Assembly (NCBI RefSeq): GCF_036971445.1 | Contig: NC_091473.1 | Coordinates: 79,856,001 to 79,920,000, forward strand | Reading direction: 5' to 3' | Length of the DNA: 64,000 bases | Origin: Narcine bancroftii | Taxonomy: Eukaryota | Shown: positions 2,062-59,500 of the stretch, in pieces | Numbering within the stretch: position 1 is the stretch's first letter | How the letters are laid out: each line of letters opens with the position of its first letter | Notes under the pieces: model-generated | Database searches by the model: none | The model's input: only the letters and a program-made list of their open reading frames with translations | Told to the model about the DNA's origin: nothing | Translations under genes and position numbers: made by a program

Positions 2062-5000
2062 GTAAGTTGAGGTTTTTAATGAAAGCACTAAAGTGCATAA
2101 AATATAAGAATGATGTGAATTATTATATCATTAAACCCTGTGCATCAATAATAATAAATTGTATTTTCTTTATTGATAATTCAAGCAAGTTTTTGATATA
2201 AACTCATCTACTCTAGTGTTAATCCTATCAAGTAAAGATCAAGATTGTAGGCCTCTATTGCATAATTCATTTTTTTTCAGTACTGTGATATAATTTCTTC
2301 TAACTTTCTCCCTTGTACAGTCCCTTGTATCCCACAGAATGTGGTAGCTCACATCAGCTGTGAAAATAACACTGTGTCTGCATTTTGGGATCCCAGTAAT
2401 GGCTCAGAGACATATTTTGTGACAGCACAAGGAACCAATGGCCATTGGGGCTCCTGCAGTTCAACAGGCACTGAATGTGAGATCTCTGACGTTTATTGTG
2501 GCCTGAACTATTATATAACTGTTCAGGCAAACCGTATGGGCTGTAATAGTTCACAAAGCCATGCTTTAATCATTAAAACAGGTAATTTCAGGAAACACAT
2601 ATAACAATAAATTCTGTCCACATTCTGTGAAATTGTCTCTTTTATATCTTACCGTTACATGGTTCAGTAATTGTACTTAGGTTCAATTTTTTATTTGCAG
2701 TACCATGTGTCCCCCAGAATGTTGACGCTCACATCGACTGTGATGATGGACATATGTCAGTCTCCTGGGGGTTCAGTAAAGGAGCAATATCATACATTGC
2801 TACTGCAGAAGGAAGCAACATGCAGCAATGCAGCACCAATGATACACTGTGTGATATCACTGACCTGTACTGTGGAGAGACCTACACTGTCACAGTCCAT
2901 GCGCACGATGACATGTGTGACACAACTAAAAGTCCTTCCATCACAAGGAGAACAGGTAACTGGGGAAATGCAACTTCCCTGAATCACTCATTTCTCTGTC
3001 AATCGTGCTACCTTAATTTTTGCACCAGCCAAAATACTGTTAGTCAGAAAAACTTACAAAGACATTTGTCTGAAGATTTTCATGAAGAACATTAAAAATC
3101 CTGAAAGGATTTGGCCCTTTGAGTCTGATTTGGCATAAGCAGGATCATCACTGATCTATCTCAATGCAATATCTGCATTATCCCCCCTTGATTTCTTTCA
3201 TATTATTGGCTTCTAGCTGAATGAATTCAGTAACTTAGACTCCACCACCTCTGGATGTGGACAATTCCATAGTTTCACCACACTCTGCATGAAGATAGCT
3301 CACTTATCGTAGTCCTAAATGGCCTTCCCTTTGTTCCGAGGCTTGGGTTCTAAATTTCTCAGTTGAAGGAAGCATCCTTTCTGCATCCAAACTGTCAAGC
3401 CTCAATTTTGTAATTTAAATGAAATCTCTTCTCATTTTTCTTAACTAGAGAAAATAGGCTAAGTTCCATCCCAGGAACCAGTCTTATGAACCTTGATTGC
3501 ACTTATTCTGTGACAGTATTTATTTTTTAGGTACATCATATTCAGGGTGTGGCCTCACCAAGCCCCTATTTAATTGCAGAAATTAAATAAACAACTCCTG
3601 AAGTTTACCTGCTGCTCAACAACTGCTCTTTTTCTTCCTTTCCTTTTTCAGTTTCGTGCATCCCACAGAATCTGGATGTGCAGCTGGACTGTGACACAAA
3701 TGATGCTTCAGTGCTGTGGAGCCACACGAGAGGTGCAGTGTCTTACTCTGCAACAGCAGAAGGAAGTGATGGGCACACAGTGTCCTGTGAGACATCCAAG
3801 AGAGAATGTCAGTTAACTGAGCTACACTGTGGACAGATGTATAATTTAACTCTGACAGCACTGGACGGAGTGTGTGACAACTCACAAAGCCCCCTGTTTG
3901 TGTTCAACACTGGTAAGACTGTTATAAAGAATTGCATGATTTAAAATCTGGCCAACCAATCCATTCATTCTATATAGGTACTTGTTTGAAGATTTTGCAC
4001 TGCATGAAAATTGGAGGACTTTTTCCTTAGGTTTAAATCTGATCTTGTTAAGTTACATGCATAGGATTTCTATCTTCAGACTTCAAGACCAAACTCCTGG
4101 AAAGTCCTGCTAGCTGATTTCCAATCTCTATGTGCCTCATCAACAGCTTGTTCACCATTCTATGTGCTGATCCATAAATTTCCTGCACATATATATTAAC
4201 ATGCTTTTCTAGTCCTTTTTTTCCAACGTCAAGTGGCTTTGCACCTTGGTTAGCCAACGCATCACTATCAAGACTGCTCTTTCAAACATTCTGGCGCTGC
4301 CAGAGCTGCTGTAAGGGCTGCACTGACACCTATGTGGAGCCTCAAGAGTGGAGAGTGCAGACTCAGCACTGCTCTGAAGGGTTCAACTGCCGAGTTTATG
4401 CCATCGGCTCTGTACAGACATTAAACTAAAATCCTGCAACCACGGGTCTGTGCCCAAGATGACAGCGCCTATACTCAGCAGTGAACATGAGTGTTGCAAA
4501 CTCCGGGGAGCAGCACACTGGCACAGAGCACCAGAAGCTGGGGAGCACCCTCCATTGACAAGGAGAAGCAGTGGAGTTGACTCTTTTGGACCAATGAGGG
4601 GCTCAGGGAACCAGGTATTGGAGCCAGGGTTCGAGGGGGTGTTGAGAGCTAGAAAATCTCCCAAAAAGCCTCAGGCACTGAAGGCTTCTTGATTGTGTTG
4701 GAGGTTTAGATCTGGAGCTCACGTTGCTGGTTGATCGAACAGGAGTCTTTGCAGCTGCAGAGGTTGTAGAAGCACTGGATGCGAATCCACAGATACACAG
4801 TGACTCTGAAGAGACTCTCTTTTGCTTCTCTTTCTCTCTTACTGTAAGAGGTGCAGGGCGACACCAATGGGGGCACTTTATTTGCCTTACAGCAGGCAGA
4901 AAACAGTTTCATGTAATATTACATGTTCTGTACTATTACATGACAATAAAAGAATTGAATCTTGTAGTCCCTAAAATCCTGCATTTCATCCTTCTATTTG

Positions 5001-8000
5001 CTGAAGCCCACACGGATTCCATTTTTTGCTCTTGTTTTGTGTCTGTTTTTTTAAATATTCTACAATGCAATATTTGAGAGAAGCATTGATGATTTCTGTA
5101 AACTGTATGTACCAGCATTGGCTTAATCTGCAATTGGTTGACCTGAATTCTGATCTTTAAAATGATAAATAAAAGTCTTGGTAATTTGTAAAAGTAATCC
5201 ATTTGATTGATCTGAAATAATTGGATGTCCAATTGTTAAGTGAAACATGTATAACAAAATTTAAGATGGACGAATGTTGGCTTGAATTATACAAACCACC
5301 CCCCCACCCCAATAGGGGGATTCTTTGTTGAAATTTAATTTTTCTACAACTCAGACACATACACTTCTGCTTTTCTTCTCCCTGCCAAATTCTTTTACCA
5401 GTAGTTGTAAAACTTCTTTTTTTTTTCAGCTTTGGGGGTTGGGGGGGGTGGTGCTCTTTTTGTCATCATATGAAACTTCTCGAGGGGAATGCTATTATCA
5501 TGGTCTATGAGTCCACTTATATAACTTTGGAAATATAACCATATACAGCACAGAACAGGCCAGTTTGGCCCTACTAGTCCATGCCAGAACAAATCCCCAC
5601 CCTCCTCGTCCCACTGACCAGCACCTGGTCCATACCCCTCCAATCCTCTCCCCTCCATGTAATTATCCAGTCTTTCCTTAAATGTAAATAATGTCCTTGC
5701 TTCAACCACGTCTGTCGGAAGCTCATTCCACATCCCCACCACCCTTTGCATAAAGAAATTTCCCCTCATGTTCCCCTTATAATTTTCCCCCTGCAATAGG
5801 CCTCTGGTTTGAATATCCCCCACTCTTAATTGAAAAAGCCTATCCACGTTGACTCTCTCTGACCTTTTTAAAATCTTGAACACCTCCATCAAATTCCCCC
5901 TCAATTTTCTACACTCCAGAGAAAAAAGCCCCAGGCTGCTCAACCTTTCTCTGTAACTCAAACCCTGACATCCTGTCAACATTCTCGTGAACCTTCTCTG
6001 CACTCTCTCTATTTTGTTTATATCCTTCCTATAATTCGGTGACCAAAACTGCACACAGTATTCCAAATTTGGCCTCACCAATGCCTTGTACAATTTCAAC
6101 ATAACATCCCAACTCTTGAATTCAATACTCCGATTTATGAAGGCCAACATTCCAAATGCCTTCTTCACCACACCATCTACCTGAGTATCAACTTTGAGGG
6201 TACTATTTACCATAACTCCTAAATCCCTTTGTTGCTCTGCACTCCTCAATTGTCTACCATTCAATGACCATGCACTCCTGTCACATTTTATAATGATGAT
6301 CCTTGATGCACATGAAGACATCATTGCTATTACAATGAGAGTAGGATTAAGAGTGCTCCAGGGCAAAGTGAGTCTTTGTGATTCAGAAGTACTTGTGTTT
6401 TTGGACTGTGTCAGCCCAGAAAAGATTATGACCCCTGATTGCTGATTGGAGTCCCTGAAAATACTATTCAACTTCCTTTTGACTTGTTAACCATCCTTTC
6501 TCTTTATGATCTCACCAGGCATTCACCCTGACTCAACAGCTTTTCTCCCAACCAACAGTTGGTGGCCCCTCCACCAATGATTGCCAATACTTTACTGTTA
6601 CCTCAATGTTACCTCAACTTCACAGAAGGATCAGTATAGAGAAAGAACCAAAGACTTGTTGATCCAAACCAAGGCTTTTATTAACTAAAAGACTGGAGCA
6701 TATCACATGTAGGTCAACCAGTCCAGATGACCTGGTCTGGCTAGGAGCAATCCTTTAAGACCTGCCAGTAGGCGTGGCTATGCTCTCAGCCAATCACAGT
6801 CATCCTACACTACCATCTGAACATATACACATTGGTGATCGAATCTGTACTATCACAATCAGTTCATTCTCACCCATGTGGTATTATTCCCATTGGACCC
6901 AGTCCTGGCTTTGAACATCCCTGTTTACCTTTGTGCTCACTGCAAAGGTAGAGATCACAGGAGGACAAGTTCAAAGTGGGAGCACTTAACACTTTGGGTA
7001 ATTGTAGCTGCCAAATTCTTAAGTATGATGTGCAACCAATGGAGTCATAGTTAGAATAACATATTTCTTTGGGTACTGGTGCATCTTTAGGCCAATGAAT
7101 ACCATTACACGTTGGAACTTTGAATTTCTATAACAGGTTGATATGATTAACTGGCGCAGAGAACAAAAAATGTTCAGAAGTCACTGTTGTAAATATTTCA
7201 AACAGTGCACCACAGTACATGTCATAATAATGAAGTGTAAATTTGCATGAATGATTAATTTTAAATGCATTCTTCAATGACACTGGTGATATTTTTTCAC
7301 ATTAGAAAACTATTTACTTTCAAAAGGGGACTTTCCTGCTTTAAAAACAGCAGGGATTTTCTTTCTTGACAATTCTTTGGAATCAAATATATGGTATTGA
7401 AATTAAATCAAAGACTTCCAACTGTGTGGATTTGTGCTCAAGATACTCTTTCATAGGTCATAATCAGTTTGTGTTTTGCAGCTCCTTGTGCACCCAAGTA
7501 TGTTTCCACCCATCTGAACTGTGACACAAAGAGTGTGTCAGTGAGCTGGGAGTATAGTGATGGTGCAATGCAGTACCTTGTAAATGCAGAAGGACAAGAT
7601 GGACACACATCACTATGTCGCACAACATGGACAAAGTGTGATTCAATGGACCTGCACTGCAGTCAAACGTATTCATTAACTGTGACAGCAATGGATGGTT
7701 CCTGTCAAAGTATAAGTACCGTTATTGAAACTGAAACAGGTACGATTTCTAAAGATTTTTTGGATTTGTGGGAAATGCAGCAATTGTAAATACTTCTCTG
7801 AGATCTAAAGTTGCGCCAAGAGTTGTTCTTTGAATATAGGAAAAGTAGCTGATCACAAGACAATTAATATAGCCATTGTACAGAATTGTCTTATTGCTCC
7901 TCAGGTACAACATGAGTGGCATTTTGTAATCATTCCCTGTGAAGAGCCTCATTTGCTAGTAGCTGAAATTTAGCTTTAGATGTCCATTTACTAAGTTCGT

Positions 8001-11000
8001 TACACTGAAAATGTATCTTTGAAATTTCATTAAAAACCGTTCCTGAGATGGTGTATTCACAGATCAGAAGGTGGTCCTAATCCCAAATACTGCTTCTTTA
8101 TTGACTTCCTCTCTTCATAACATAGGAAGTGAGGATGTTGCCTGATGAATTACACAGTGTTCATTTCCATTCTCTCAGCAAGTGAAGCTGCTGTACCTAT
8201 AGCAAACAAGATCTAGATACAGGAAATTCACAATGGGCTGAAAAATGCCTTTTTTCGAAAAGGCTAATTTTTTAAATTTTAATTTCAAACTATTTATTTG
8301 GCATTCAATTCATTTTTGAGGAAAAAAGCAATGCTAGAATTCTTTTGAATTATGAGGTTAAATGGCCAGTAAGACAGGGAGCTTACGTAAAGGAGATGGG
8401 ATCCAATGCATCCAGCAGGATCAAAACAATTTTACAAGGGCATTTCTTGTTCATTTTCTTAAGGGCCTAATCATAATTTACCATTCACGATGAATTGAAT
8501 GTCTCTAAATGGTGATCTAGTTACAGCAATACCATTGGAGATCTCTTCATAACGAGTATATTTTCTGAATTCATTAATCAAAAAAACCATTCCCTCTGCT
8601 TCCAACTCTGCAGATGCCTGATCTGTTGAGTATTTCTAACATTTTATGTTTCAGATTTCTTTTTTTCAAATTCATTCAATAATTTTGGAATTCAACAGAG
8701 AGAATGGACTCAAGGGGCTGAATGACTCATTTCTCTCCCAATTTTATATTTGTCCTGTTGAAATGCAGCACTGATACCAATAATTTGTTACATTTATCTT
8801 TCCTCACCTCCAAAAGCCCCGTGTCCCCCTCAGAACGTACAAGCTGACTGTGATGCTGTCATTGCGTTTGTAACATGGGAGCCGAGTAATCTCACAGTGT
8901 GGTACACTGCAACAGCTGAGGGGAGTGATGGGCACACAGCCACCTGCACCACATCTGAAACAAGCTGTCTAATCCCAGATCTTCACTGCAGCCAAGTATA
9001 CAGCATCTCAGTGCTCGCGTTTGGTGAAACCTGCAGCAGCCTCCAAAGCTCCAGCTATGAAATTCAGACAGGTAATGTGGAAGGAGAGAAGTTTTGTATA
9101 ACACCATTCATCTCCTCAGGATATCTTGAGATCAGTTGATGTGCTGCCAGTTTACATTCATAGACCATGGCAGTAAGCCCTTGAAAGGAACATAAGCTGA
9201 ACAAGGTTGATATGGCTTTTGCGTTGGAAGGTGAATTATGCTCAGTGCAACATCCTGTTCCTCTCCAGAAAAGAGTTCTTGGAATATTTGAACAGAACAG
9301 ACATGGCCCTGAATAAAAGTCTCTTTGGAAATACAGATCTGATCAAGGATCTCACACTCTCAGTACAACGTTAACCCATCAACTGGAGTCATGAAGCAGG
9401 CAGCTAGTGCTTGGAAAATGGTGGGAATCAACTGAGTGTATCTCTTAGTGAGGTTTCTGACCTTTGTAGGGCTACACAAGGCTATAACTAGATTTCTGAA
9501 GTGGCACCATCAAACTGTTAATTGGGGTCTGATAATGCACTTCTGGCTGCCGATACTGGAGTGAATGGGTAAAATGGGGGCCATGCTCACTCTGGCAAAC
9601 ATCAAGTCACTGTCCAATTAAACTGGACTGCAAAGGGGAGTTATCCATTATATTTGTAGAGATTGTCAGAGTAGAACTACTGTTTATCATACCGAAGGGT
9701 GGTGAATATATGAATCAAGCTATGTGAGGAAGCTCTAGAGGTGGGTACAATATGACATTTAGAAGACCTTTGGAAGGGTACATGGATAGGGAATGTTTGG
9801 AGGGATATGAGGTAGGAAGGATTTAGTATTTTGTTTTTGGTAGGAATATATAGGTTAGCATATCATCAAAGACCGACAGGCCTGTACTGTGCTGTAATGT
9901 TCTATATTCTTTGTTCTATGCAGCAGTATCATGGAACTCATCCAATTAACCATTATTTTGAAGTGCAAAATATCTAAAGATGAGCCAAACAAATCTGAGA
10001 TATAGAACATCTGTCAAAGAGAAAAGGAGCTAGAAACATCTATCCTGCCAGCATAAATGAATGTGTGCCCACTTCTGCCCCAAAGCCACCATCTTGTAGG
10101 GTTTTGTGATGGCCCTGTTATTAGTGGAAGCACAGCAGGCCTACAATCTACTGATTTAATCTTTAAGCAATCCAGAACATAGCGACTTCACTAAACACAA
10201 TAGATATCTACAATAACCTGAGGATTTGGAGATTAGTATTATATCCATATCTGAAGTCATTAAAGTAAAGAGCCAGAGAGAATCGTGGGAGAATTAGCAC
10301 TTAAACTGGCAGAAAGCCATGGTAAACCAGTCATTACTGGGACTTTTGGAGCTGTAAAGCAGACAACTGGATTGACAGGAAAAAGGGATGATTTTGTAAT
10401 CCTTTTCATTCAGTAGATTTTAATGTTTATTTTTCCTTTTTAAAGCATCATGTGCCCCTGATGAAATCATTTCCAATGTGGATTGTAACTCCAATAGAGT
10501 GGTAGTTTCATGGGCAAGGTCTAATGCAACGATCTCGTATGATATAACTGCAGAAGGAACTGATGGACATACACACTCACACAACACAACAGAGACACGC
10601 TATGAAATGCTGGATTTACACTGTGGACAGTCCTATAACATAACCGTTACAACACTGAGTTATGGTCGGCGCAGTATTTCAAGTACTTCCATCCAAATCC
10701 AAACTGGTAATTAATCTTCTAATTTTACCTTAATTGTTCATATTTATGGATAATTATGTAATAAATGGCATTCACTTGTATTTTATACATAGCACCATGC
10801 ATTCCTGAGAATCTAACAGCTGAGCTGAATTGTGATTTGAATACAATATCCTTCTGGTGGGATGAGACTGATGGAGCAAAGTTATACACTGTGACCATTC
10901 GAGACAGGCAAAGAGTCACGGCTTTATTCAACACAAGTGATGCAAGCGCTCAAATCCAAAACCTACAGTGTGGTGAATATTACACAATCTCTGTTCTAGC

Positions 11001-14000
11001 AACAGATGACATCTGCAGGAGCCCTCAAAGTGCAGTGGTGAATGTACATGCAGGTATCACTCAATGTAACATCTTAAAACATGAACTCTTACATTCTACA
11101 GACAATATGTAAAGGTCCTGTGTTTTTTTTTCATCCAGTTGCTCTCTTTGTTAAGTGGATTTCTCCATATATTGCAGTATTCTTGGCAATTGGCTCTTTG
11201 GAAAATTTGCATTGTTTGTTATGATGCTTATGGTTTCAGAAAGATAGCTATGTCTCACAGCTGTTATGCACAGAAGGAGCACAGTTCTAATTTTATGCTA
11301 GCCATTTGTGTGCAGTTACATTTACATTAAATTTGTTTTAATTTGAAATTCACTCTGCATTATAAAGTGACAATTACCAGAGTAATTCAATCATGCACTG
11401 TTTATTTGGACTCACACTTGTTGTTGATCCAATTTTCTTACATCCATTTTAACTTTCAATCTTATTTTCAGTTGCTTGTGACCCACAGAATGTCAAAGTA
11501 CAACTGGATTGTGACCTCAATACAGCACTGGTGTTGTGGGATGAGAGTAAGGGAGCTCTGGAGTACACTGCCATTGTAGAAGGAGTTGATGGGAGCATTG
11601 TGTCATGTAGCACAACAGAAACATCATGTAGAACACCCCTGCTACGTTGCAGCCAATTATATTTCATATATGTTGTAGCATCTGACAGCACTTGTAACCA
11701 ATCTCTGAGTACAATGGTTGAAATTCAGACAGGTAACTAATCAATGATGTGGCATGTACTGCTGAAAAGTAAACTTGCAGTATTTTCTATTAACCAGAAA
11801 TGCACTGTAGTGTTTTGCTGTATCGTACTGTGTAAAAATGTCAATAATTCCTAGCGCTTCAGTCATCCAAATGATTTGAATGTTTCATTGAGTTTATAAT
11901 CTCAATCTTGCATTTTATCTTTTCAATGTTTATAAGAATTTTTAGACTTTTTTTCAAAATTTGTTTTATTTACCTATATTTTGAATATACACTAAACCCC
12001 CTGGTATCTGGCACCTATGGGGATTGATAGATGCTGGAGAAGTGAATTTTCTGGTTGCTTGATATTGCATGTTACATGATTAGTGAACTAACGGTGACGC
12101 ACACGTTTTAAACTTCGGTATATTTTACCTATTTATTTTCCGCTTTTTTTTTGCTGGTTGCTTGAATTTCAGAAAACAGGGGTTTTACTGTACATAACAA
12201 TTGACTGTGCCTATAGCTATTTTTTTAAATTTCTCCAGCACCCTGCAGTCCCCAGAATACCAGTGCTCATTTGGACTGTGCAACACACACAACGACAGTG
12301 TGGTGGGATCACAGTGATGGTGCCGTGTTCTACACTGCCATAGCAGAAGGAATGGAAGGAGACAGGTACTCGTGCAATGCAACAGAAGCAAACTGTGAGA
12401 TCATGGGGCTCCCGTGTGGCCAGATGTTCAGTATAACTGTGTTAGCAATGGATGAGAACTGCACCAGTTTACCAAGTCAAAAGTTTGAAATTCAAACAGG
12501 TAAAATTATGACAGTATTTTTACTTATCAAGAAAAATAATGACCTTCCATTATTAAAACTGTAATTCAATTAAACTTACAATGAACTTATTTTATAATTA
12601 TTACAAACTTAAACATCTAGCAATCAATTGTACCAACTGCTGACCAAACTGCCTCAGTGGATCTGTGGCTATGTGTATATTTCTGGATTATTTTGCACTC
12701 ATTGTTATTGCTGCAAGTTTCATCAATGATCTTGGAAATAGGAGTGGTCTTTGTATATTGTTTCCTTTAAACTGCAGTCTGAAATGGATTTGAAGGTGAT
12801 TCACTGTCCCAGTGATGTTTATGGGTTCACATGATTAAAATGGCCACTGGCTCTCAATGAATACAACTATGTTGGGTGCCATCAGTGATCTAGATTACTA
12901 ATTACTGAACAGTTGGATCAGCTCCACAGTGCTGGTGTTCAAACTCTGCACATTCTGCCTCAGGTGCAATGTTCTGTTCTACGGTCAAAGCTATATATCT
13001 GAGAGTTAGTTAATCAGTTACTGAATATTGTCCTGTGTGGTGAGCTATGGTGAATAGTAACAGTTTCTCATCAACTATTCCAAGCTAGCTGGTACAACAA
13101 TGTAGAAAAAGCTAAGACTTACATTTACATCAAACTCATTGTGGGCTTGGGATACTGAAAAGAGCATTTCAATGTTTAATTGAGTACCCAAACATGGCAT
13201 ATTCCCTTGGATATTTTTTATGAGAATCTTGGACTGGCAAGTGAAAGTAGTGTCACCCCAGATAACTAGCATGACATGTTGTATAAGACAAACATAATTC
13301 TTCCATAATTCTTGGTTATGTAATCCAGATTTGCTGTGCACTTATTTGCAAACATTATTGCCTGTTGATCCAGATCAACCCCATTTCTTCTCATCCAATA
13401 TTTTAATCTTGACCTCACTTGTGCTATTTTCCTGTCTACTTCTCTTCACTAAAGGGATCTCCATAATTCTCACTTCTTTTTATTTAACATGACAGGAAAT
13501 ACCTTGTTTTCTGCTAATGAGAATACAGGAATAATTTGAAATGATGTGAAATTTATATATGATTCACATTCACAGTTATTACATTTACTCATGGTTACTA
13601 ACTTAATCATCGTCGTGTTAGACGTGTAAGTGTTGCTGCACAAATAATTCTGAAACAAAGTCCACAGATTGTTCTTCTTTGGCTTGGCTTCGCGGACGAA
13701 GATTTATAGAGGGGTAAATGTCCACGTCAGCTGCAGGCTCGTTTGTGGCTGACAAGTCCGATGCGGGACAGGCAGACACGGTTGCAGGGGAAAATTGGTT
13801 GGTTGGGGTTGGGTGTTGGGTTTTTCCTCCTTTGCCTTTTGTCAGTGAGGTGGGCTCTGCGGTCTTCTTCAAAGGAGGTTGCTGCCCGCCAAACTGTGAG
13901 GCGCCAAGATGCACGGTTGGAGGCGAGATCAGCCCACTGGCGGTGGTCAATGGGGCAGGCACCAAGAGATTTCTTTAGGCAGTCCTTGTACCTTTTCTTT

Positions 14001-44000: not shown

Positions 44001-44544
44001 ATTTTGGATACTTAGGATTTGAAATGGGTCACAACCATAATGAGCCAGACTCTTGATCTAAAATTTCTTGGATGCAAAGATCTGCAATGAATGGACAAAT
44101 GTGGAATATTTGTGACTGAAGGTATTTGATTTCAGTGAGATGCCCAAAATCCACCTGCGATTCAATATTCTGTGAATGCAGACAGAACCTTAGCAGTCAA
44201 TAATTTCTTGACTTATATGTCTATATTTCATTTTCTACAGCACCATGTGCCCCAGATGAAATCATTGCCAATGTGGATTGTAACTCCAATCGAGTGGTAG
44301 TATATTGGGGCCGGTCTAATGGAGCCAGGGAATTCAATGTAATCGCAGAAGGAAGTGATGGACATACACACTCTCACAACACAACAGAGACACGCTATGA
44401 AATGCTGGATTTACACTGTGGACAGTCCTATAACATAACCGTTACAACACTGAGTTATGGTCGGCACAGTATTTCAAGTACTTCCATCCAAATCCAAACT
44501 GGTAAATTATATCCCACCAGAAAATAATGTTGATGCTTAGTAAA

Positions 44545-44578
<34 letters not shown>

Positions 44579-47500: not shown

Positions 47501-50500
47501 CAAGGCTCTGTGAGCACGTTCCAGTATTATACCTTCCAGGAAATGTTCTTGACCCAGCACCTGCGGAATCCATTCAGTAAAAAATTTTCTTGGGTCTGCT
47601 CCCTCCATTCCTTCCGGCAAACCAGTAATCTTTATATTGTTCCGTCTGGATTGGTTTTCCAAATAATCAATCTTTTTCACCAAATGTTTATTTTGAGTTT
47701 GTAAGTCTTCGACCATTTTGGTCACATCTGAAACTTGATCTCGTATTTCGTCTATATCTTCTTCACACGAATTAAATTTATCTCTCACTTCAAGCTTAAA
47801 AGCTACAAACTCAGCCATCTGTTGAGAATTTATTTCCATCAGAGTATTGAACCTAGTACCAAGTTCAGTCATAATCTTAGATAATCCCTGCATTGTATAA
47901 GATAATTTAGATTCAAGATTCACAAGAATCTTTTCAATTGGAAGAGATTCTGGCTCAACAGATTCCTGCTTCTTCTGCATAACCAAAGGGTCTTCTGTTG
48001 CTTCCTTCATTCTGGTTGCCTTCCTTGTAGTATAGCTGTGTGTGGAAACCCCAGCCACAGCCTCTCCAGCAATGACTAGAGGACGCTGGCCGGGATTTTC
48101 CCCAGTCCATAATGTGTTAATTTCTCCCAGTACATCAAGTTGTATAGGTTCTTTTATCTCAAAAGGTGCAGTTTGCAGTGCCACCGCTACAGTTGACAAA
48201 TGCCTTTCCCCAGCCGGTACTTCAACTGATGTTACTACAAGTGGTTCATTCATAACATTGCCGTCAGATGCTACTGCACATGTGCGAACCTGAGTAACTC
48301 TTTGTTCTAAAGGCTGTTTGGCGCCCTCTTTAGAGGGCTCTACCGATGTAATATTGAACTCTACATCCGAAAGCTGTACCTTTCTCCTGGGATCCATTTC
48401 GGGCTGAGTCTCGATGTCTTTCCTCTAGGTAGGCTCCAAAACTTGAACTTTTGGAAAATGTAGTTTTTTGATAATCTGTTGTCGTTTTTTTTTTGCTCTT
48501 TTCCACCAATTGTACCATCATAAGTTAAATTAACAGCACTGAAGTTATCTAAACTTTTAAAGAATTTTAATGGGCATTTCTAGACAAAACGATAAGATAG
48601 AGTCAGGAGAGGACTGTAAGGCACGTCTGATCCTTAGGCCATCTTGCCACGCCCCCCCAAAAAGACATGCTTAAAGACAGTTTCTTCCACATGGCTATCA
48701 GGCTCATTAATGAACCCTAAAATAGTGCTCTCATGTTGTACTAATTGTCTTTTTTTTCCCATTGCAACTCTAAACTGTAATAGTGTCATTGTCTTTCTAC
48801 TTTCTATGGATGTTAGAGTTGATGTTAGACTGCTCATGGAAGAACCCTTTTCACTGAACCAGATGTAATGTGACAAACTTCACCTTAAATTCAATGCCTC
48901 AATCTGAGGCATCAAAGCTACAGCTTTTGATGATACATGAGGTTACCCATGGTTCGGGTTGCAAATGACCTATCTCATGTCAAGGGATTTCCATCTGTTC
49001 ACCTGTGTGCTGTTACTCCTATGAACATCAGCCTTCTCCCCCACACCTCCCCACTCCTGTTTTCCCTCATCTGTAGCTGTTACGGTAGAAAGGATTATGG
49101 GTTGAGTGTAGGTCAGTGGGGTTAGGTGGGAGAAAGTGTTTGGCATGGACTAGAAGGGTCAGGTTAGAACAAGAAATACGAGTAGGAGTAGGCCATCCAG
49201 CCCATCGAGCTTATTCCGCCATTCAATAGTATTATGGTTGATCTGATCATTGACTCAACTCCAGCTACCTGCCTTTTCCCCATATCCCTTAATTCCTTTT
49301 TTTATGTGAACATCTATCTAACTGAACCTTAAATATATTTAATGAAGTACCCTCAACTGCTTCCCTGGGTAGAGAATTCCACAGATTCACTATTCACTGG
49401 GAAAAACAGTTTTTCCTCATCTCTGTCTTAAATCGACTCCCCTGAATCTTGAGGCTGTGTCCCCCAGTTCTGGTCTCACCTACCAGTGAAAACAATGTTC
49501 ATGCTTCTATCTTATCTATCCCTTTTATAATTTTATGTATTTTTAAAAGATCTTCTCTCATTCTTCTGAATTCAAGTGAGTATAATCCCAGACGATATAG
49601 TTTCTCCTCATAGGTCAACCCCTTCATCTCCGAGATCAATCTGCTGAAGCTCCTCTGGACTACCTCCAAGGCCAGTATATCCTTTCTCAAGTATGGAGAC
49701 ACAGTACTCCAGGTCCGGCCTCACCAGTACTCTTGAATTCAATTCCTCCACCAATGAAGGCAACATTCCATCTGCTGTCTTAATAAGCTGTTGTACTTGA
49801 AACCCAATTTTTTGCGATTCATGCACAAGCACTCCCAAGTCCTTCTGCATGACAGGATGCTGCAATTTTTCACCATTTAAATAATAATTTGCTCTTCTAT
49901 TTTTCCTGCCAAAGTGGATAACCTCACATGTTTCTATGTTTTAATTGTTGTAAGGTTAAAATCTTTAATAGCACTGACACACTTCCTACAAATGAATAAC
50001 TGAATAGTACAGCAGCTGCCTTTTTAATAGTGAAAGATGGATTTTAATACTCTTTAAAAGGGGAAACAATGAAAACAGTTTCAAAAGAAAAACAAGGATG
50101 TTTCAATTTTCTGATTTTTTTTTAGTTACACAGATTTTTTTGCTGGGGCAGAACAGCGCCCATTTTGTGCACCAAAATAGGATGAAACGAAAGCAGTTTC
50201 TGAACGTGAGTGCTTGACACCTATGGTCTGCAACTCTGTAGTGGAAATTCATTTTGATTTATCCACCTCAATTCTAGATGTAGCCACTGATCCAGCAAGT
50301 GCAAGAATTGCATATGCACTATTTTGTTATGAGCCCAAAGGACCCCAAAACCCAGCAACAATAGATATGCATGACAACAAAGGGTTACTTAAACAAAAGT
50401 TGCTTTTAATTCTCTTTTAACGTGAAAACAGAATCAAACTTTAACTTACCTCTATTTTTAATGTACTTAACCTAACTTAACCCCTTTCTAATTCTAAGTG

Positions 50501-53500
50501 CTCGTGTATGTAATTGTGTGTGTAAATTTAAAAAGGTTCTTTAGTTCACAGTCCAATCTCACTTCTCATTCTTCCAAGTTCATTGGTTGCAGGCAATTCT
50601 TATACTGTGCCCAGAATTTAACATGTATAAAATTCATCAGGCTTTGGTGCTCAAAAGGTAAATATTTACCACTCAGGAAGGTTCTTGTAGGTTTTGTAGA
50701 GAGAGATGTGTTGTTCCAGGATTTCCACAACTGAGGTACCACCATTAGTCACCTCAATGTCTCACTGATGAAACTTGCCTCATCAGGGTTCACCAGATGA
50801 TAACCTCTTTCTTTCAGGCTACCACAGGGTTCCTTTCTGTTCCACTTATTCCAAGTGAAAGTGAAACAGCTGACAGCCAGTACTTTCAGCCATCCTTCAC
50901 TCTGGAGCTTCTGTTTCAGTTCCAACAAGCTTCCTGCTTCAGTTCCAACAAGCTTCCTGCTTCAGTTCCAACAAGCTTCTCTGTCTCACCCACACTGACT
51001 GAGACACTTGTTTCACTCCTTCTCTATCTCTCTCGCTCACCCAGACTGCTTGCAAAAAAACCACCTGAGCTTCTCCATCAAACAATAGAAGTCAGTCTTC
51101 TGGTTCATCTGTTGTTTTTAGGTAAACAAGAACCCATCAGTGACCTCTGAGCACTCTTGTCAAAACCCTTGCAAAAAGGTGTCAGGAGACAGTATGTCTC
51201 TTGCTGTTGCTTTAAAGACAATAGTTGATTCATTTAATTATCACTTACTTTGAAGTTTCCATATCCACTCTTCACAATTTCAGCCGAGTTACTGTAGATA
51301 TGAATTTTCCAGTATTTCAAATAAGATCTGTTTTAAAATGTGTGTATGTAACCTACTCTAACTTTTCCCAATTCATCTCCCAAAAAATATTTCTATATAT
51401 TCTGGTCACATTTAGAATTCACAGAATTATTTCCTACGATGTTTCCAGTGATAGGCTTGCAGCATTTCTTACTAATCCTGATTGTGCTAATTTTTGAACT
51501 AACTATATATCAATCCCCAGGTAATGAATAATGTTTTTATTAGGGATGCCATCCTGGACATATTTTCCTTTTTAACCACCAACTAAAAATGAACAAATTC
51601 TGAGCATGGGCGTAGCCAGGTTCTAACGTTAGGGTGAGCGAGCACATAAAAAAGCTGCCACAACACATACCAGAGGGTGAATCAGTGGTTAAAAGGTTAA
51701 AAGATTTTTCAGTGACATTGGACCTGTGGGGCCACATCCACGATGCACACCAAATAATTTTAAATTCATTTTTACTTTGTATTTAACATCAAAAAAACAA
51801 GGATTTTAAGTAAGATACAGTTTTAAAGGAAGTGCATAATTGTTAGTTGTGTTTAAAATCAAACATACCAGTAATACCAGTGTTACTTAATTATTTTACA
51901 TTTTAAACCTAAAATGAAAACAAAAAGAAGCAATATGAAAAATGTATGAAGCAGCCTCTTTTGTCTAGGCTTAATTCAAGCAAAGTTATCTATTATTTAT
52001 TATACCAGTAATCTACCCCAGTAGCCAACTGTCCCCTTCGGAGCTATTCCTCCCCAGATGCCAGTGGCCAGACAGCTCCCCCTAAGCATCTTCAAAAGTA
52101 GTGCCTTTTTGAACTGTGTACCCACTGCTCAGTCTCCTGTGATGTGCTGGTGGGCCACAGTACTTTTGTACATTGCACTTAACCTCAGCATCTGAAGACT
52201 TTCTTATTTAACTCTCACTTCATGTCCACAGTCCACTTTTTTGCCACTTACCGGAGATCTCTGTCCTCTCAGTAAAATGTTGTCACATGTTGTCAACCTC
52301 CTCTCAGAATTTTTTCCTTAATTTTTCCAGAAAAACCATTTGAAATATTATTTCTCCACTCCAGCTTCACTGTCCCATATAGAACCATGTATCGTTTTCT
52401 GGCTTCCTGATATAACTGAATTCCTTCTCCATGAATATAATTCCAGTAAATTTCCACTGCATTATTTCTACTCTATGAATTTCTCTATTTATGAATGGAT
52501 AAAAACATTTTCCTGGGAATTATTGACTTTGTCATAATTTCATCCATCAATGTCTTATTCTTGGTTGGTCCAACCATCTGACGTACAATTTTAACTTTCA
52601 ATTTTATTTTCAGTTCCTTGTGACCCACAGAATATCAAAGCACAACTAGATTGTGACCTCAATACAGCACTAGTGTTGTGGGATGAGAGTAAAGGAGCTC
52701 AGTGGTACACTGCCATTGGAGAAGGAGCTGATGGAAACAACATGTTGTGCAACACAAGAGAAACATCATGTAGAACACCCTCGTTACTCTGCGGCCAGAT
52801 ATATTCTGTTTATGTTGTAGCATCAGATTGGACTTGTAATCATTCTATGAGTTCAACAATTGAATTTCCAACAGGTAACTATTTTACAAATTGCCTGACA
52901 TGCAGTCCAAAAGAGTAAAAGTCTATCATTTTTTGTTCACCATTATGTTGTCCACTGGTTAAATGTTTGGATTGAGAGGTGGAGCCACACTGACTTTGGG
53001 GACATTGGTTTGAAATCCACCAGAGCTGCTTGGGAATTTTAATTCATGTCATCAAATAAATACAGAATAAGGGTATTGCTCCAGTTTTAGGGAGGATGGT
53101 AGTATTTTTTTAAAATCATCTATTCACTCACATCCTTCAAGGAAAAGAATCTGCAATAGTTTCCCTCTTTAGGTTTTTCAGTTGATTCTTAATTGCCCTC
53201 AGAAATGAACCAATAAGGAGCAAATATACATGGACAGTAAATTCTGGACTTAAATGATGTTTCTTCTCTTGAACAAATAAATGTTGTACAAAAGCATCAT
53301 CTACGTACCAGGGCCACCTTCAATGTACATTAGCTTATTGACTGGGACTCCCTACTGTAAAAGGGCTGGATGGCTTGGAGTTTATCAAATGTATTCAGGA
53401 AAATTTTCTAAATCAATATATAAAGATACCAACTAGAAAGAATGCAATACTGGATCTCCTATTAGGGAATGAGACAGGATAAGTGACAGAAGTATGTGAC

Positions 53501-56500
53501 CAGAAAATTTTGCGTTGTGATCATAATGCCATTAGTTTCAATTATGGAGAAGGATTTGCCTGGACTTCAGATTGAGATTCTAAATTGGCGGAAGGCCTAT
53601 TTTGCGGAACTGAAAAAGTATCTAGATAGGGTTAATTCGTTTTTAGGCAAGGGTGTGTGACCTTCAAAGGTGAAATTTTGAGAGTACAAAGTTTGTACAT
53701 TATGTTCCTCTCAGGATTAAAGGCAAAGTTAGCAGATGTGGGGATCCTTGATTTTCAAGGGATATTGGGTATCTAGTTCAGAAGAAGAGAGAGGTGTACA
53801 ACAGGTAAAGGAAGCATGGAGCAAATTGGATACTTGAGAAGTATAAAAAATGCAAGAAAAGCATTAAGAAATTAGGAAGTCTAAAAGAAGACATGAGGTT
53901 GCTTTGGAAGGCAATGTGAATGAAAATCCTAAGGGTTTCTACAGGTATATTAAAGTAACCCTTGAAATTATAGGCCAGTGAGCCTGACATCAGTAGTTGC
54001 TAAATTATTGGAAGGTATTCTAAGAGATCAGATATACAATTATTTGGAAACCCAGGGACTGATTAGGGTAAGTCAACATGGCTTTGTGCTTGGTAGGTCA
54101 TGTTTAACCACTTTTATTGAGTTTTTCAAGGAGGTTACCAGGAATATTGACAAAGTCCACATGGACTTTTGTTAGGCCTTTGACAAGCTCGCACATGGGA
54201 GGTTAGTCAAGAAGGTTCAGGCACTCAGTATACATGGTGAAGTAGTGAATTGGATTCAACATTGGCTGGATGGGAGAAACCAGAGATTTGGATGATTGCT
54301 TCTCAAACTGTGACTAGTGGTGATCCTCAGGGATCTGTGCTGAGAGATTGTTGTTTGTCATCTATATCAATGATCTGGATGATAATGTGGTAAACTGGAT
54401 CAGCAAGTTTGCAGATGACACTAAGATTGGAGGCATTGTGGACAGTGAAGAAGGCTTTCAAAATTTGCAGAAGGATCTGAAAAATGGCAGATATTGTGTG
54501 CAGTTTGGGTCACCTAACTATAGGAAAGATATCAATTAGATATAAAGAGTGAAGAGAAGATTTGCTTGGATGACTTCAGGAACTGAGTTACAGGGAAAGG
54601 TTAAACAGATTAGGACTTTATTCCCTGGAGCATAGAAAATGAGGGGAGATTTGATAGAGCTATTTAAAATTATGAGGAGGGTAGACAGAGTAAATATAGA
54701 TAGACTTTTTCCACTGAAAGCAGGTGAGATAACAAACCAAAGGACATAGGTTAAGGGTGAATGGGGAAAACTTTATGGGGAACATGAGGGGGAACTTTTT
54801 CCACACAGAGAGTGGTGGAAGTGTGGAATGAGCTGCCAGCTGAGGTGGTGAATGCAGGCTCATTTTGAACATTTGAGAAGAATTTTGGACAGGTAAATAT
54901 ATGGGAGGGGTATGTAGGGATATGGACTGGGTATCGTTCAGTGGGACAGAAAAATGGTTTGGCACAAACTAGAAGGGCTGAAGGGGCCTGTTTCATGCTG
55001 AAATTGTTCTGTGGTTTTATGGTTCCAGCAGGATGCTTTCAATCTTTATTTTACCACCAAAATGTATTGCCTTGCAGTAATTCATCTTGTATGAGCCACA
55101 TGCAGACCATTTGCTCAAATGATTTCTGCCTTCCTAGAATCTGTTACATTTTTCACTGCAAGGCTAACTGGAAAGATCAAATTATCATGTTCCCTTAACT
55201 GAGGTGTTGAGAACCAGGAGGCTCAGAATAAGGATCAGCTATTCACCACTTGAGTTCTTAAAACATTTATTCTCCCAGTAGATTCTGAGGCTTTAGAATC
55301 ATCTATCCAAGACTGAGCAGCAAAATAATCTTTCATTGTTAATAGAACTTTTACATTTTTAATCCCTATTTGTATATTCAGATCTGTGAATTTAAATTAA
55401 ATTTGTTTTACTTAATATTTCTCAGCTCCCTGCAGTCCCCAGAATGCCAGTGCTCATTTGGACTGTGACACACACACAACGACAGTGTGGTGGGAGCTGA
55501 GTGATGGTGCCGTGTTCTACACTGCCATAGCAGAAGGAATGGAAGGAGACAGGTACTCGTGCAATGCAACAGAAGCAAACTGTGAGATCATGGGGCTCCC
55601 GTGTGGCCAGATGTACAGTATAACTGTGTTAGCAATGGACGAGAACTGCACCAGTTTACCAAGTCCAGCTTTTGAAATTCAAACAGGTATGATTACCTTC
55701 AATTATGTAAAAAACAGAAATAACCAATCATCAGAAATCATTTAAATCAGCATTGTATAATGAAATTGCATGTTAACCAGCAAAAATAACCTACTGTACT
55801 TCAAAAGCATGTTATTATACCTTCAATTGTAGATACATATGCACATGGCCTATATCTCAAACATACATAAAAAATTTTAAAACTACATAGTAAATATTGA
55901 TGCTTGGGGACCAAGATGCAACATGATAATTCAACATTATTACTTTTGTGTTTGTTGAAGTTGTGGGAATTTGTTAGCTTAAATTTGACAGGTGATGTTG
56001 TTTTCATATATTATTTCCCTTGAATAATAATAAAATGCAGCGAATGTATTTACAAAGTAATTAAGATCAGCAGGTGGTGAACTGTGCTCATCTTGCAATA
56101 AACATTACCAAGCAGCATAATTCAGAAATTGCATTTTATGGGCTGCCAATCCCAAAATTTCTTCCTTGGATACAAAAGGGATCAGAGTATTTCACATTAC
56201 AGCATTGCTCACATTAACTGATATATTTACCTACAGCTGTTAGAACCACAGAACACTTCAGCACAAAAGTGACCCTTTAGCCCATCTAGTCCATGCCAAA
56301 CTATTTATTCTGCCTAGTCCCATCAATCCCATAGCCCTCCATAAATCTCCCATCCATGTACCTATCCAATCTTCTTTTAAATGTCGAAATCAAACCCACA
56401 TCCATCAATTCCACAGGTAGCTCAATCCATACTCACCTTTTTAGTGAAGAAGTCTCCCCAATGTACCCCTGAAAAATTTCAGCTTTCACCCACTCTTCAA

Positions 56501-59500
56501 GTCCCAGCAACATCTTTGTCAATGTTCTCTGCCCTCTTTCGATCTTATTCAAATCTTTCCTGTAGGTTGATGACCAAAATTCTTGCAAGAACTTGTTAAA
56601 TAGATTTAATAATAGAACATGAAATTCACTATGCAGAATTAAATTCACAATTGTTTAAGGATTCTTTTTTTGCTTTCTCCCTTGTACAGTCCCTTGTATC
56701 CCACAGAATGTGGTAGCTCACATCAACTGTGAAAATAACACTGTGTCAGTGTTTTGGGATCCCAGTAATGGCTCAGAGTCATACCAAGTAACTGCACAAG
56801 GAACCAATGGCCATTGGGCCTCCTGCCAAACAACAGGCAGTGAATGTGAGGTCTCCGACGTGTATTGTGGACTGAACTATTATATAACTGTACAGTCAAT
56901 CTGCGTGGAGTGTAACAGCTCACAAAGCTCTGCTTTGACAGTTAAAACAGGTAATTCATGTGAATTATATAGAACCATGTCTAAAATTAACGTATTATAT
57001 GGATGTTGCTTCTCATGTATTATTCAGTCTATATTTATGAATTTTCTTCTTGCAGTACCATGTGTCCCCCAGAATGTTGACGCTCACATCGACTGTGATG
57101 ATGGACATATGTCAGTCTCCTGGGGGTTCAGTAAAGGAGCAATATCATACATTGCTACTGCAGAAGGAAGCAACATGCAGCAATGCAGCACCAATGATAC
57201 ACTGTGTGATATCACTGACCTGTATTGTGGAGAGACCTACACTGTCACAGTCCATGCACACGATGAGACATGTGATACTGTTGAAAGCCCTTCCATCACA
57301 AGGAGAACAGGTAACTGCAGAGATGTGCAATTTCCCTGAATCACAAATTTCTCTGTCAATCACACTCATCATTTCTGCACCAGATTGCTCTGTAGAAATA
57401 TCCTGAAATACATTTTCTCAGTATGATTTTGTAAATGATAACCTGTAGGTTAAACTAACAGTCTTTTATTAAACAAATCTGCTTGCTTATTAACAGGCTA
57501 CAGCTTCAAGGCAATTCAAAATTTAAAATGCAATGTCTGAGTCAAAGGCAGTTGGTCAATTGTATAATTCCATAGTGGGTGTACACCCAACAATATAGAA
57601 ACACATACTGAACATTTGATTAAAGATTTGGGTTATTTAAATAACTGCTCTTCATCCACTGTTTTCTTTTCAGTTTCGTGCATCCCACAGAATCTGGATG
57701 TGCAGCTGGACTGTGACACAAACGATGCTTCAGTGCTGTGGAGCCACACGAGAGGTGCAGTGTCTTACTCTGCAACAGCAGAAGGAAGTGATGGGCACAC
57801 AGTGTCCTGTGAGACATCCAAGAAAGAATGTCAGATAACTGAGCTACACTGTGGACAGATGTATAATTTAACTCTGACAGCACTGGACGGAGTGTGTGAC
57901 AACTCACAAAGCCCCCTGTTTGTGTTCAACACTGGTAGGACCTTTGTTTGACTTTGTTGCTTTAAAAACTAACTGTAAAATTTTCCATGACTTTTACACT
58001 TGCAATGCACCTGTTACCTATCGAAATACCACATCACATTGAGATAGAAAACTGTTAGAGGTAACCGCAAACAAATCCATGCTATACTGTGCAATATATG
58101 GTGGGTAGTCATGTATGAACATTATTGAAGAAAATTGGCAGCTACTTTTCATGTTCCATGCAATATAAGTGCAGAGGAAGGCTGTAGATGGAGCTCTCGA
58201 GAGTGCAATAATTGAATGACTTACTAAATTGTAAATACTGTAAAACTTCACTGATCCACTACTTGATTGTTGTGAAATTCTCATGGTTTGGCATCTGCCA
58301 CACCAGGTGATGTTTGCCATGCTTCCCTTTAGCTCAAATGTGCCTAATTCCTACACTTCCCTTTAGTTCCTGCCATCCCTTCTAATTCACTTGAACCCAA
58401 TTTCATAGCTCCTTTTTAATCTATTGGCAGCAGGTATCGTTCTAGTTCCTCACTCACCTGTTCTCAGTTCTCCAGCTCTCTTTAATCGCATTGGGTCATG
58501 TTTGCCATTCTCCCTTCAAACTCACCAGGATCCTTGCTTCTGCACTCATTTTAAACTGATTTCCCCATCCTTGCTTTCAATATAAACTTACAGAATTGGT
58601 TGTGCTGGTGTCTTCTTCTTTCTTTGGCTTGGCTTCGCGGACGAAGATTTATGGAGGGGTAATGTCCACGTCAGCTGCAGGCTCGTTTGTGGCTGACAAG
58701 TCCGATGTGGGACAGGCAGACACGGTTGCAGCGGTTGCAAGGGAAAATTGGTTGGTTGGGGTTGGGTGTTGGGTTTTTCCTCCTTTGTCTTTTGTCAGTG
58801 AGGTGGGCTCTGCGGTCTTCTTCAAAGGAGGTTGCTGCCCGCCGAACTGTGAGGCGCCAAGATGCACGGTTGGAGGCAATATCAGCCCACTGGCGATGGT
58901 CAGTGTGGCAGGCACCAAGAGCTTTCTTTAGGCAGTCCTTGTACCTCTTCTTTGGTGCACCTCTGTCTCGGTGGCCAGTGGAGAGCTCGCCATATAACAC
59001 GATCTTGGGAAGGAGATGGTCCTCCATTCTGGAGACGTGACCTACCCAGCGCAGTTTGATCTTCAGCAGTGTGGATTCAATGCTGTCGGCCTCTGCCATC
59101 TTGAGTATTTCGATGTTGGAGATGAAGTCGCTCCAATGAATGTTGAGGATGGAGTGGAGACAACGCTGGTGGAAGCGTTCTAGAAGCCGTAGGTGATGCC
59201 GGTAAAGGACCCATGATTCGGAGCCGAACAGGAGTGTGGGTATGACAACGGCTCTGTATACGCTAATCTTTGTGAGGTTTTTCAGTTGATTGTTTTTCCA
59301 GATTCTTTTGTGTAGTCTTCCAAAGGCGCTATTTGCCTTGGCGAGTCTGTTGTCTATCTCGTTGTCGATCCTTGCATCCGATGAAATGGTGCAGCCGAGA
59401 TAGGTAAACTGGTTGATCGATTTGAGTTTTGTGGGCCCGATGGAGATGTGGGGGGGCTGGTGTAATTATAGAATAAAACCCATGATCCAGAAAATCTATG

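Follow-up and report, generated by a model that had tools for sequence, protein, structure and literature searches.

Probable short-tract gene conversion of paralogous FN3 exons, with escape of their introns, in an FNDC7-like array of the electric ray Narcine bancroftii: a new example of a known process

Several systems described in animals and plants come close to the pattern analysed in this work. In the KRTAP1 repeats of mammals the coding sequences evolve concertedly, synonymous sites included, while the flanks do not, and the switch at the coding border is abrupt; reverse transcription was weighed and rejected as the cause, and short-tract conversion was proposed (bioRxiv 10.1101/282418). 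A model of interlocus conversion for HMA4 of Arabidopsis halleri predicts that shorter tracts let introns escape more (bioRxiv 10.1101/2025.10.29.685298), and pairing is disrupted by substitutions, transposable elements and indels (PMC3924837). Intragenic concerted evolution has also been reported for the FN3 exons of mammalian tenascin-X (Hughes, 1999, as cited in PMC1578592 and PMC9779670).

The locus described here lies in a 64,000-nt stretch of the Narcine bancroftii genome (NC_091473.1, forward-strand positions 79,856,001 to 79,920,000), hereafter the window, and is an FNDC7-like gene of this electric ray with five units, each of nine FN3 exons (A to I). Like KRTAP1, it combines concertedly evolving coding sequence with abrupt borders and conserved copy number and position. 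However, the KRTAP1 repeats are separate single-exon genes with borders at the initiation and termination codons, whereas the Narcine repeats are domain exons of a single gene, have their borders at splice sites, belong to nine classes that convert independently and include occasional intron-spanning tracts. With HMA4 the array would share divergence-dependent conversion together with purifying selection, homogenized exons and the escape of unconstrained introns, but HMA4 consists of young whole-gene copies in which short introns are still converted, while the Narcine array is far older and most of its 105–130-nt introns have escaped. As in tenascin-X, exon-encoded FN3 repeats evolve concertedly within a gene; the tenascin-X introns, to judge from the title of the original paper and the citing sentence, are homogenized too, whereas Narcine has a nine-exon higher-order unit and introns that have mostly escaped. 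The clustered protocadherins of fugu (PMC1852091) are alike in their regional homogenization, with synonymous divergence close to zero, and have raised GC3 where they are converted, a tendency that the Narcine array may share; they differ in that part of one large variable exon is affected in many genes instead of small intron-bounded exons. Discrete conversion zones around coding exons are also found in tandem elasmobranch paralogues, the shark sparc-L/scpp genes (PMC9122587), although few exons of two genes are involved in the scpp case. In human LPA (PMC4378929), kringle exons can likewise be identical across kringle types (KIV-3 exon 1 equals KIV-2B exon 1, and KIV-1 exon 2 equals KIV-2 exon 2), but in an array that is recent and copy-number-variable. 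The literature covered, which lies outside subscription journals and bioRxiv supplements, contained no description of this array or of exon-wise conversion in FNDC7-like genes. An earlier note on this DNA had seen in it a candidate for an undescribed process; since KRTAP1 is an already published case of coding-restricted conversion with abrupt borders, and a model for HMA4 covers intron escape, the array is a new example of a known process.

The units of the array are arranged as follows.

1801..11732, forward strand: unit 1, with A1 1801–2061, B1 2321–2581, C1 2701–2955, D1 3652–3912 and E1 7482–7739
Within 1801..11732, forward strand: remaining exons of unit 1, F1 8817–9071, G1 10446–10706, H1 10793–11053 and I1 11472–11732
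12239..26655, forward strand: unit 2, with A2 12239, B2 15400, C2 15786, D2 16198–16458, E2 17049, F2 17783, G2 21522 and I2 26395
21886..22075 (ends approximate), forward strand: decayed remnant of exon H2, with partial tblastn hits only and the expected acceptor AG missing
37241..52874, forward strand: unit 3, with A3 37241, B3 37773, C3 38164, D3 39627–39887 and E3 42797
Within 37241..52874, forward strand: remaining exons of unit 3, F3 43487, G3 44241, H3 44623 and I3 52614
55426..63672, forward strand: unit 4 up to H4, with A4 55426, B4 56690, C4 57056 and D4 57674–57934
Within 55426..63672, forward strand: remaining exons of unit 4, E4 61566, F4 62294, G4 63048 and H4 63412
Outside the window, window-equivalent 66671–97559: I4 and unit 5 (A5 to H5), following unit 4

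The exons of unit 1 are of phase 1-1 throughout and bounded by AG and GT, all nine match Pfam fn3 (five exceed the gathering score), and the joints A–B, B–C and C–D were seen spliced in run X5, which is treated as RNA solely on the ground that introns are skipped in its contigs at GT..AG. The exons in the window are 100% identical to the NCBI FNDC7-like models P0002, P0003 and P0013, of which P0002 passes from G2 straight to I2, and the 5774-aa Hemitrygon fndc7rs1 has its A–I domains in the same order. With Cys-rich FN3 domains in tandem, each encoded by a single phase-1 exon, the predicted protein belongs to the FNDC7-like FN3-repeat proteins. The annotation has broken up one secreted FN3 protein of about 5,700 aa into several models.

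The features that bear on homogenization are these.

3652..3912, forward strand: exon D1, with 1 difference to D3, 3 to D4, 4 to D5 and 8 to D2
39627..39887, forward strand: exon D3, whose upstream intron resembles that of D2
57935..58234, forward strand: intron 3' of D4, common to D5, with identity of 100/100, 98/100 and 95/100, then decay (83/100)
1889..1989, also 12327–12427, 37329–37429 and 55514–55614, forward strand: A core of 101 nt, invariant across five A exons
2727..2839, also 15812–15924, 38190–38302 and 57082–57194, forward strand: C core of 113 nt, invariant across five C exons
43292..44883, counterpart about 62099–63672, forward strand: conversion tract of about 1.6 kb, F3–H3/F4–H4, ending at the H donor site

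The near-identity of D1 and D3 that the earlier note had reported is confirmed: they differ at 1 of 261 nt, a non-synonymous difference at exon position 162, with 0 differences at about 62 synonymous sites, and their identity does end at the splice sites, extending 7 nt past the acceptor AG and 3 nt past the donor GT. The upstream intron of D3 is indeed like the short one of D2 (116 nt aligned at 89%), and the D2 and D3 exons, put at about seven differences, have exactly seven. The conflict between exon and intron genealogies that had been read from this holds in that the D3 exon groups with D1, D4 and D5, but not in that the D2/D3 exons and introns differ in age, their synonymous p of 0.081 being at the level of the intron they share (10 of 113 positions mismatched). 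Synonymous p is 0–0.08 in the D class and 0.01–0.07 in the A class, in which the shared core, estimated at about 100 nt, covers exon positions 89–189 (permutation P <= 5e-5) and is found unchanged in 5/5 copies, four inside the window and a fifth downstream; the A flanks are unalignable as described, with one blastn hit of 17 nt between A-flanking introns over 16 pairs. The invariant run of the C core is equally improbable by permutation (P <= 5e-5). It has 0 nucleotide differences across its five copies and an amino-acid distance of 28.5% to other species, a between-species variability (0.285) that exceeds that of the remainder of the domain (0.152). Because this core is identical within the array and variable between species, protein-level selection is unlikely to be the cause of the identity, as had been argued. 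At synonymous sites, both D1/D3 and the C core are homogenized.

That exons are near-identical and introns are not proved true of many exon pairs, but the pattern is patchy and neither general nor exon-limited. Synonymous p is at most 0.05 in 18 of 82 same-class exon pairs and at least 0.19 in 29, and these diverged pairs (0.19–0.44) are as diverged as introns; four B–C intron pairs align over at least 90 nt, at 70–79% identity, similar to diverged exon pairs. Mean p is 0.017 in class D and 0.162 in class I, and the nearest partner changes from exon to exon (D1–D3, A2–A5, B2–B4, C3–C5). At strongly homogenized exon ends identity is lost within 8 intron bases in 29 of 50 cases. Confinement of conversion to exons, in contrast, is contradicted twice. 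The 1.6-kb tract (23 mismatches and one 18-nt AT-run indel) covers the end of the E–F intron, F, the entire F–G intron (12/499 differ), G, the G–H intron and H, and so takes in two introns completely and a third in part, and the introns following D4 and D5 are identical at 100/100 bases. Similarities of 21–26 nt on the acceptor side (H1/H3/H4, G3/G5, E2/E5) were not accepted as proving intron conversion, since I1, I2 and I3 share 23–24 nt there despite diverged exons, which may reflect splice-signal constraint.

Comparison with other sharks and rays relied on trees of protein sequences only, prepared carefully for classes A–D, quickly for E and with FastTree on the rows of seven species for F–I. 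In these, the Narcine D copies form one clade (support 99/94), as do the C copies (100/99), and shark copies likewise cluster within species; no single supported Narcine clade was obtained for A, B, E, G or I. Lineage-wise clustering of repeats was also seen in protein models from the assemblies of eight other species. In the FastTree analysis H5 groups by position over Narcine, Hemitrygon, Mobula and a skate, and G1 over Narcine and Hemitrygon. The Hemitrygon array has five units and ends with H5, and unit 2 is without H in the Narcine, Hemitrygon and Mobula birostris models. Clustering of the repeats by lineage, combined with a five-unit layout common to stingrays, implies concerted evolution without recent unit duplication. 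In nucleotide comparisons with a second species, X8, for which 40 of 203 difference rows are listed, the alignment of the orthologous A1–B1 intron has about 20 substitutions over 259 nt, and X8 B1 differs from Narcine B1 at 8/172 positions, against 14–17% between B paralogues. The X8 D copies collapse into a single contig (depth 23 versus 8–13) at 11/203 differences from Narcine D1; D copies are 0.4–3% apart inside Narcine versus 5.4% to X8, and among the rows listed at least two A sites invariant in Narcine have another letter at full depth (39.8/39.8). In the sequences compared, paralogues are closer than orthologues for D and C, but not for B1, E1, G1, G2, H5 and I. Patchy tracts, discordant genealogies and conserved copy number and order are likewise combined in the array.

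Together, the array, its patchy near-identity, the lineage clustering of its repeats and tracts that sometimes include introns are directly observed. The paralogous exons are probably kept alike by homology-dependent, short-tract, DNA-templated non-allelic gene conversion from which introns escape. Ongoing ectopic conversion between paralogous exons, as the earlier note had proposed, is supported by within-genome distances, lineage clustering and tracts; it is inferred from sequence comparison rather than from pedigree or population events. In this scheme the array of five nine-exon FN3 units would be old, and purifying selection would hold exons indel-free and similar enough for pairing. Conversion would repeatedly reset exons, synonymous sites included, through tracts that are probably mostly 100–300 nt, with few above 1 kb. 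Introns would gain indels and repeat insertions, drop under the pairing threshold and escape, and tract ends would accumulate at splice sites simply as the places where homology stops. Exons with too much drift (B1, E1, G2, H5 and the I class) would also escape; their present divergence is intron-like and their GC3 lower, as GC-biased conversion would predict. Third positions are AT-richer in the escaped copies (56 versus 17, P = 5e-6, for seven exons chosen after the distances had been seen), and the trend at class level is not significant (rho -0.6, P = 0.09). Since most B–C introns of 105–130 nt have escaped, unlike the short introns that the HMA4 model keeps converted except where tracts are short, short tracts must be assumed. 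A DNA-only neutral toy model, in which intron indels act as permanent barriers by construction, gives synonymous p of about 0.01 and introns at 0.24–0.28. Identity is lost within 8 nt at 61/105 of its homogenized exon ends, one setting close to observation among four (29/120, 61/105, 54/82 and 51/70). The model homogenizes only when conversion attempts outnumber mutations, with none at 0–1 attempts per mutation in the first settings and partial homogenization at 1 in later ones.

Instead of passive intron escape, DNA conversion could act everywhere while exon tracts are preferentially fixed by selection for the usefulness of identical domains, which is how the same abrupt border pattern is explained for KRTAP1. 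The strong class dependence of homogenization between D and I and the closeness of the G3/G4 and H3/H4 pairs in three ray lineages fit this proposal, but the homogeneous class differs by lineage, as chance escape predicts: within-lineage distances are 0.10, 0.18 and 0.02 for class A and 0.17, 0.01 and 0.04 for class B in Narcine, Hemitrygon and Heterodontus, respectively, and 0.02 in Narcine and 0.24 in Rhinoraja for class D. As the neutral model is moreover sufficient, a role for such selection is considered improbable.

Spliced RNA or its cDNA, suggested by the earlier note as a possible template, would limit tracts to exons. The abrupt loss of identity at exon ends, the escape of even the 105–130-nt introns and the transcription and splicing of the gene in at least one sample (X5) would suit such a template, which is nevertheless very unlikely. 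Both unambiguous tracts (F3–H3/F4–H4 and D4/D5) extend into intron DNA, and a splice donor also marks the end of the longer one. Recombination with cDNA is the accepted route of intron loss, but introns are present at 42/42 places between the 43 intact exons of the array, nine of them 86–130 nt long. Co-conversion across exon junctions was not found, 3'-end distances of one exon failing to track the 5' end of the next: over eight classes rho is clearly positive only for F–G (0.63), with 0.32 for C–D and six negative values, the E–F row being distorted and unusable owing to a 3-nt deletion in E1. The intron at the F–G junction is itself converted. Homogenization has no 3' bias (rho -0.15, P = 0.35), the middle units being the most homogenized, and D1 is separated from the gene end, downstream of it, by more than 10 kb of mRNA. 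Among the matches listed there is no retrocopy: 7/7 DNA, 56/56 protein and 1/1 3'-exon matches, all lower bounds, fall inside the locus. A combined process, in which spliced RNA or cDNA, acting alongside DNA conversion, serves as the template by which single internal exons of the roughly 17-kb mRNA overwrite paralogues up to 80 kb apart, is also highly improbable; if true, it would explain the tracts that end just a few bases from the splice site on either side, and would have acted across sharks and rays over hundreds of millions of years without a single intron being deleted.

Merging of exon copies by assembly or polishing is extremely unlikely. Identical cores do lie in exon interiors, where short reads are ambiguous, the contigs are bubble-collapsed with none covering an entire D exon and both flanks, and runs X1–X4 may be the assembly's own sample. 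However, the graph contigs, which are unpolished, have the A core collapsed over 152 nt at depth 38.5 and D over 198 nt at depth 34.7, or 3–4 times the depth of a single copy (10.5); other letters number 4 in the A core and 2 in D, while B1 and the A1 edges assemble separately with 0 differences. In another sample, X6, the D2 intron and a D exon are linked, with 3 differences over 178 nt, and the second-sample RNA (X5) has A2- and C3-specific edges and one collapsed C–D contig. The likewise collapsing X8 and the lineage clustering in the eight other species' models add to these read-derived contigs and second-sample RNA, which argue against an assembly artefact. Recent duplication of units with fast intron turnover, favoured by 2.1 kb at 94% identity between units 3 and 4, or purifying selection or codon bias alone, can be virtually dismissed, given that X8 orthologous introns still align at about 92% and paralogous ones do not, that unit number, terminal H5 and missing H2 are common to stingrays, that the nearest partner varies exon by exon, and that the C core varies more between species than the rest of its domain.

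The Narcine array reveals no new mechanism. Near-zero dS between its repeat exons tells nothing of the age of the repeat array. With nine exon classes at five fixed positions, repeated in many shark and ray genomes, it is a natural experiment on gene conversion, in which converted and escaped exons side by side allow the divergence threshold for escape, the length of tracts and GC bias to be estimated directly across a very long time span.

The exons of the window belong to an array whose layout was resolved using the window together with 200 kb of neighbouring, N-free sequence from the 3.33-Gb genome of Narcine bancroftii. Single FN3 exons precede and follow five units of nine phase-1 exons, A to I (the digit in an exon name gives its unit); all nine classes match Pfam fn3, and 43 array exons are intact, with H2 decayed and I5 absent.

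Window-equivalent -66146 to 120309: whole locus
Window 21886-22075: decayed H exon of unit 2

The FNDC7-like protein models of N. bancroftii match the window exons at 100%. In contigs of RNA run X5, the A-B and B-C introns are skipped at GT..AG, C is joined to D, and the loose ends, translated by eye, read as I-to-A and D-to-E junctions; these spliced junctions therefore make the array units part of one spliced gene. In the NCBI annotation this gene is broken up over three or more models (P0002, P0003, P0013), while its Hemitrygon orthologue is one modelled protein of 5774 aa; judged by eye, the start of that protein is signal-peptide-like and no membrane segment is evident at the C-terminal end. 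Of the papers listed in searches of the open literature, none describes a function for this giant Cys-rich FN3 protein and none is on the array. An inverted LINE-like pair, 79-88% identical, flanks unit 3 in its entirety (26724-29116 in the I2-A3 intron, 53336-54964 in the I3-A4 intron). The I2-A3 intron also holds an LTR-retroelement-like insert (32326-37064) whose 175-nt direct repeats are 97% identical and, by eye, enclose reading frames of zinc-knuckle-like and integrase-like type; GC-rich minisatellites of 28 and 22 nt occupy the D3-E3 intron (41832-42155).

The earlier note had described exons D1 (3652-3912) and D3 (39627-39887) as nearly identical up to their splice sites, and this proved accurate: they differ at 1 of 261 nt, with no difference among some 62 synonymous sites, and remain identical for only 7 nt past the acceptor and 3 nt past the donor. 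The intron upstream of D3 does resemble that of D2 (89% over 116 nt), and the D2 and D3 exons differ at 7 sites. The identical A core of about 100 nt also stands, and comprises 101 nt invariant in all five copies (permutation P <= 5e-5). The C exons share 113 such nt (all five copies; permutation P <= 5e-5); among the other seven classes the invariant-run permutation was not significant in four and marginal in three (0.03-0.05). The near-identity is patchy. Synonymous p is <= 0.05 in 18 of the 82 same-class exon pairs and >= 0.19 in 29; the latter are comparable to the divergence of the short paralogous B-C introns (70-79% identity in the four of ten pairs alignable over 90 nt) and so provide an internal baseline for exons not recently converted. 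Homogenisation peaks in the middle units (mean nearest distance 0.086, 0.066, 0.037, 0.034 and 0.064). Third positions are AT-richer in escaped copies, which have diverged like introns (56 vs 17; copies chosen post hoc; class-level trend P = 0.09), in line with the GC3 signature described as used for fugu protocadherins (PMC1852091).

Comparison across species places this homogenisation in time. In a second species (run X8), the orthologous A1-B1 intron is still alignable, with at least 20 substitutions in 259 nt among the differences listed, and B1 is the positional orthologue of Narcine B1 (8/172 differ). For D, this species yields a single collapsed contig (depth 23 vs 8-13), which differs from Narcine D1 at 11 of 203 nt; in A, a different letter appears at full depth at two sites that are invariant in Narcine. 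Protein trees (27-41 domains per class, up to 12 species) recovered the within-species clustering expected of conversion, with Narcine D and C each forming one supported clade (99/94, 100/99) and shark copies clustering by species; H5 and G1 cluster by position instead. The lineage-wise D and C clades and the X8 collapse support the ectopic gene conversion between paralogous exons that had been proposed, and selection on the protein is, as argued earlier, insufficient: between Narcine and other species, 28.5% of residues differ inside the C core and 15.2% outside it. Hemitrygon also has five units ending in H5. Unit 2 is without H in the models of Narcine, Hemitrygon and Mobula birostris, although an exon may be skipped in a gene model; this suggests an old, shared loss that identifies orthologous units and that conversion never made good. 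The shared five-unit layout, H5 end and missing H indicate that the array is older than the electric ray-stingray split, of the order of 150-200 million years ago; the nine-exon unit is common to sharks too. Exons have been homogenised since that split, without recent unit duplication. As for individual classes, G3 pairs with G4 and H3 with H4, nearly without differences, in each of Narcine, Hemitrygon and Mobula (P0018, P0021; window 43292-44883), a block with short introns that is repeatedly co-converted. Stingray A domains retain position-specific variants (P0018, P0021, P0001; an A5 clade over Hemitrygon, Hypanus and Mobula, 100/99) and B is homogenised there; Narcine has the reverse.

An assembly artefact is unlikely to have produced the exon identity. 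Read-derived contigs do leave out small bubbles, and no D exon is covered from end to end by any of them. However, in DNA run X1 (possibly the same sample as the assembly; unique-intron depth about 10.5), single collapsed contigs represent the A core (depth 38.5, only 4 other letters) and D (depth 34.7, only 2), whereas B1, 14-17% from its paralogues, assembles separately with 0 differences. Moreover, in sample X6 the D2 intron is joined to a D exon that shows 3 differences in 178 nt, and RNA run X5, from a second sample and study, has A2- and C3-specific 3' edges. The differently labelled organism of run X6 matches the window without a difference over 151 intron and 182 B1 bases (depth 2-3), and is either a very close relative or a mislabelled or mixed sample.

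A template of spliced RNA or cDNA, entertained earlier, is very improbable: identity is indeed lost within 8 intron bases at 29 of 50 homogenised exon ends, but a 1.6-kb tract common to units 3 and 4 takes in F, G and H together with two complete introns and a portion of another (23 mismatches; terminating, even so, at the H donor site), D4 and D5 share intron bases (100/100, then 98/100 and 95/100), none of the 42 introns is missing (nine measure 86-130 nt), adjacent exon ends do not have common donors except across the F-G intron, itself converted, 3' bias is absent, the middle units being the most homogenised, and genome searches gave no retrocopy among the matches listed. The same tract and D4/D5 identity reduce confinement to exons to a tendency. 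Conversion from DNA alone would suffice for the pattern in a toy model, which speaks for sufficiency and is not proof. With a 30-40-nt perfect seed required, indels as built-in barriers and about two or more attempts per mutation, the model gave synonymous p of about 0.01 and introns at 0.24-0.28, and at one setting identity broke off within 8 nt at 61 of 105 ends (24-73% over four settings); with indels switched off, introns were homogenised as well.

Comparable behaviour is reported elsewhere. KRTAP1, as described in 10.1101/282418, resembles the ray array in its abrupt coding-only concerted evolution, and reverse transcription was rejected there. In the model outlined for HMA4, exons remain converted while introns escape divergence-dependent conversion (10.1101/2025.10.29.685298), and Fawcett and Innan list substitutions, TEs and indels as ending conversion (PMC3924837). 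Concerted evolution of FN3 exons is attributed to tenascin-X (Hughes 1999, as cited in PMC1578592, PMC9779670), conversion zones centred on exons to sharks (PMC9122587), and exons identical between kringle types to LPA (PMC4378929). The ray FN3 array most likely represents a known process, gene conversion, and not a new one; it offers an unusually clean system for it, replicated across the phylogeny.
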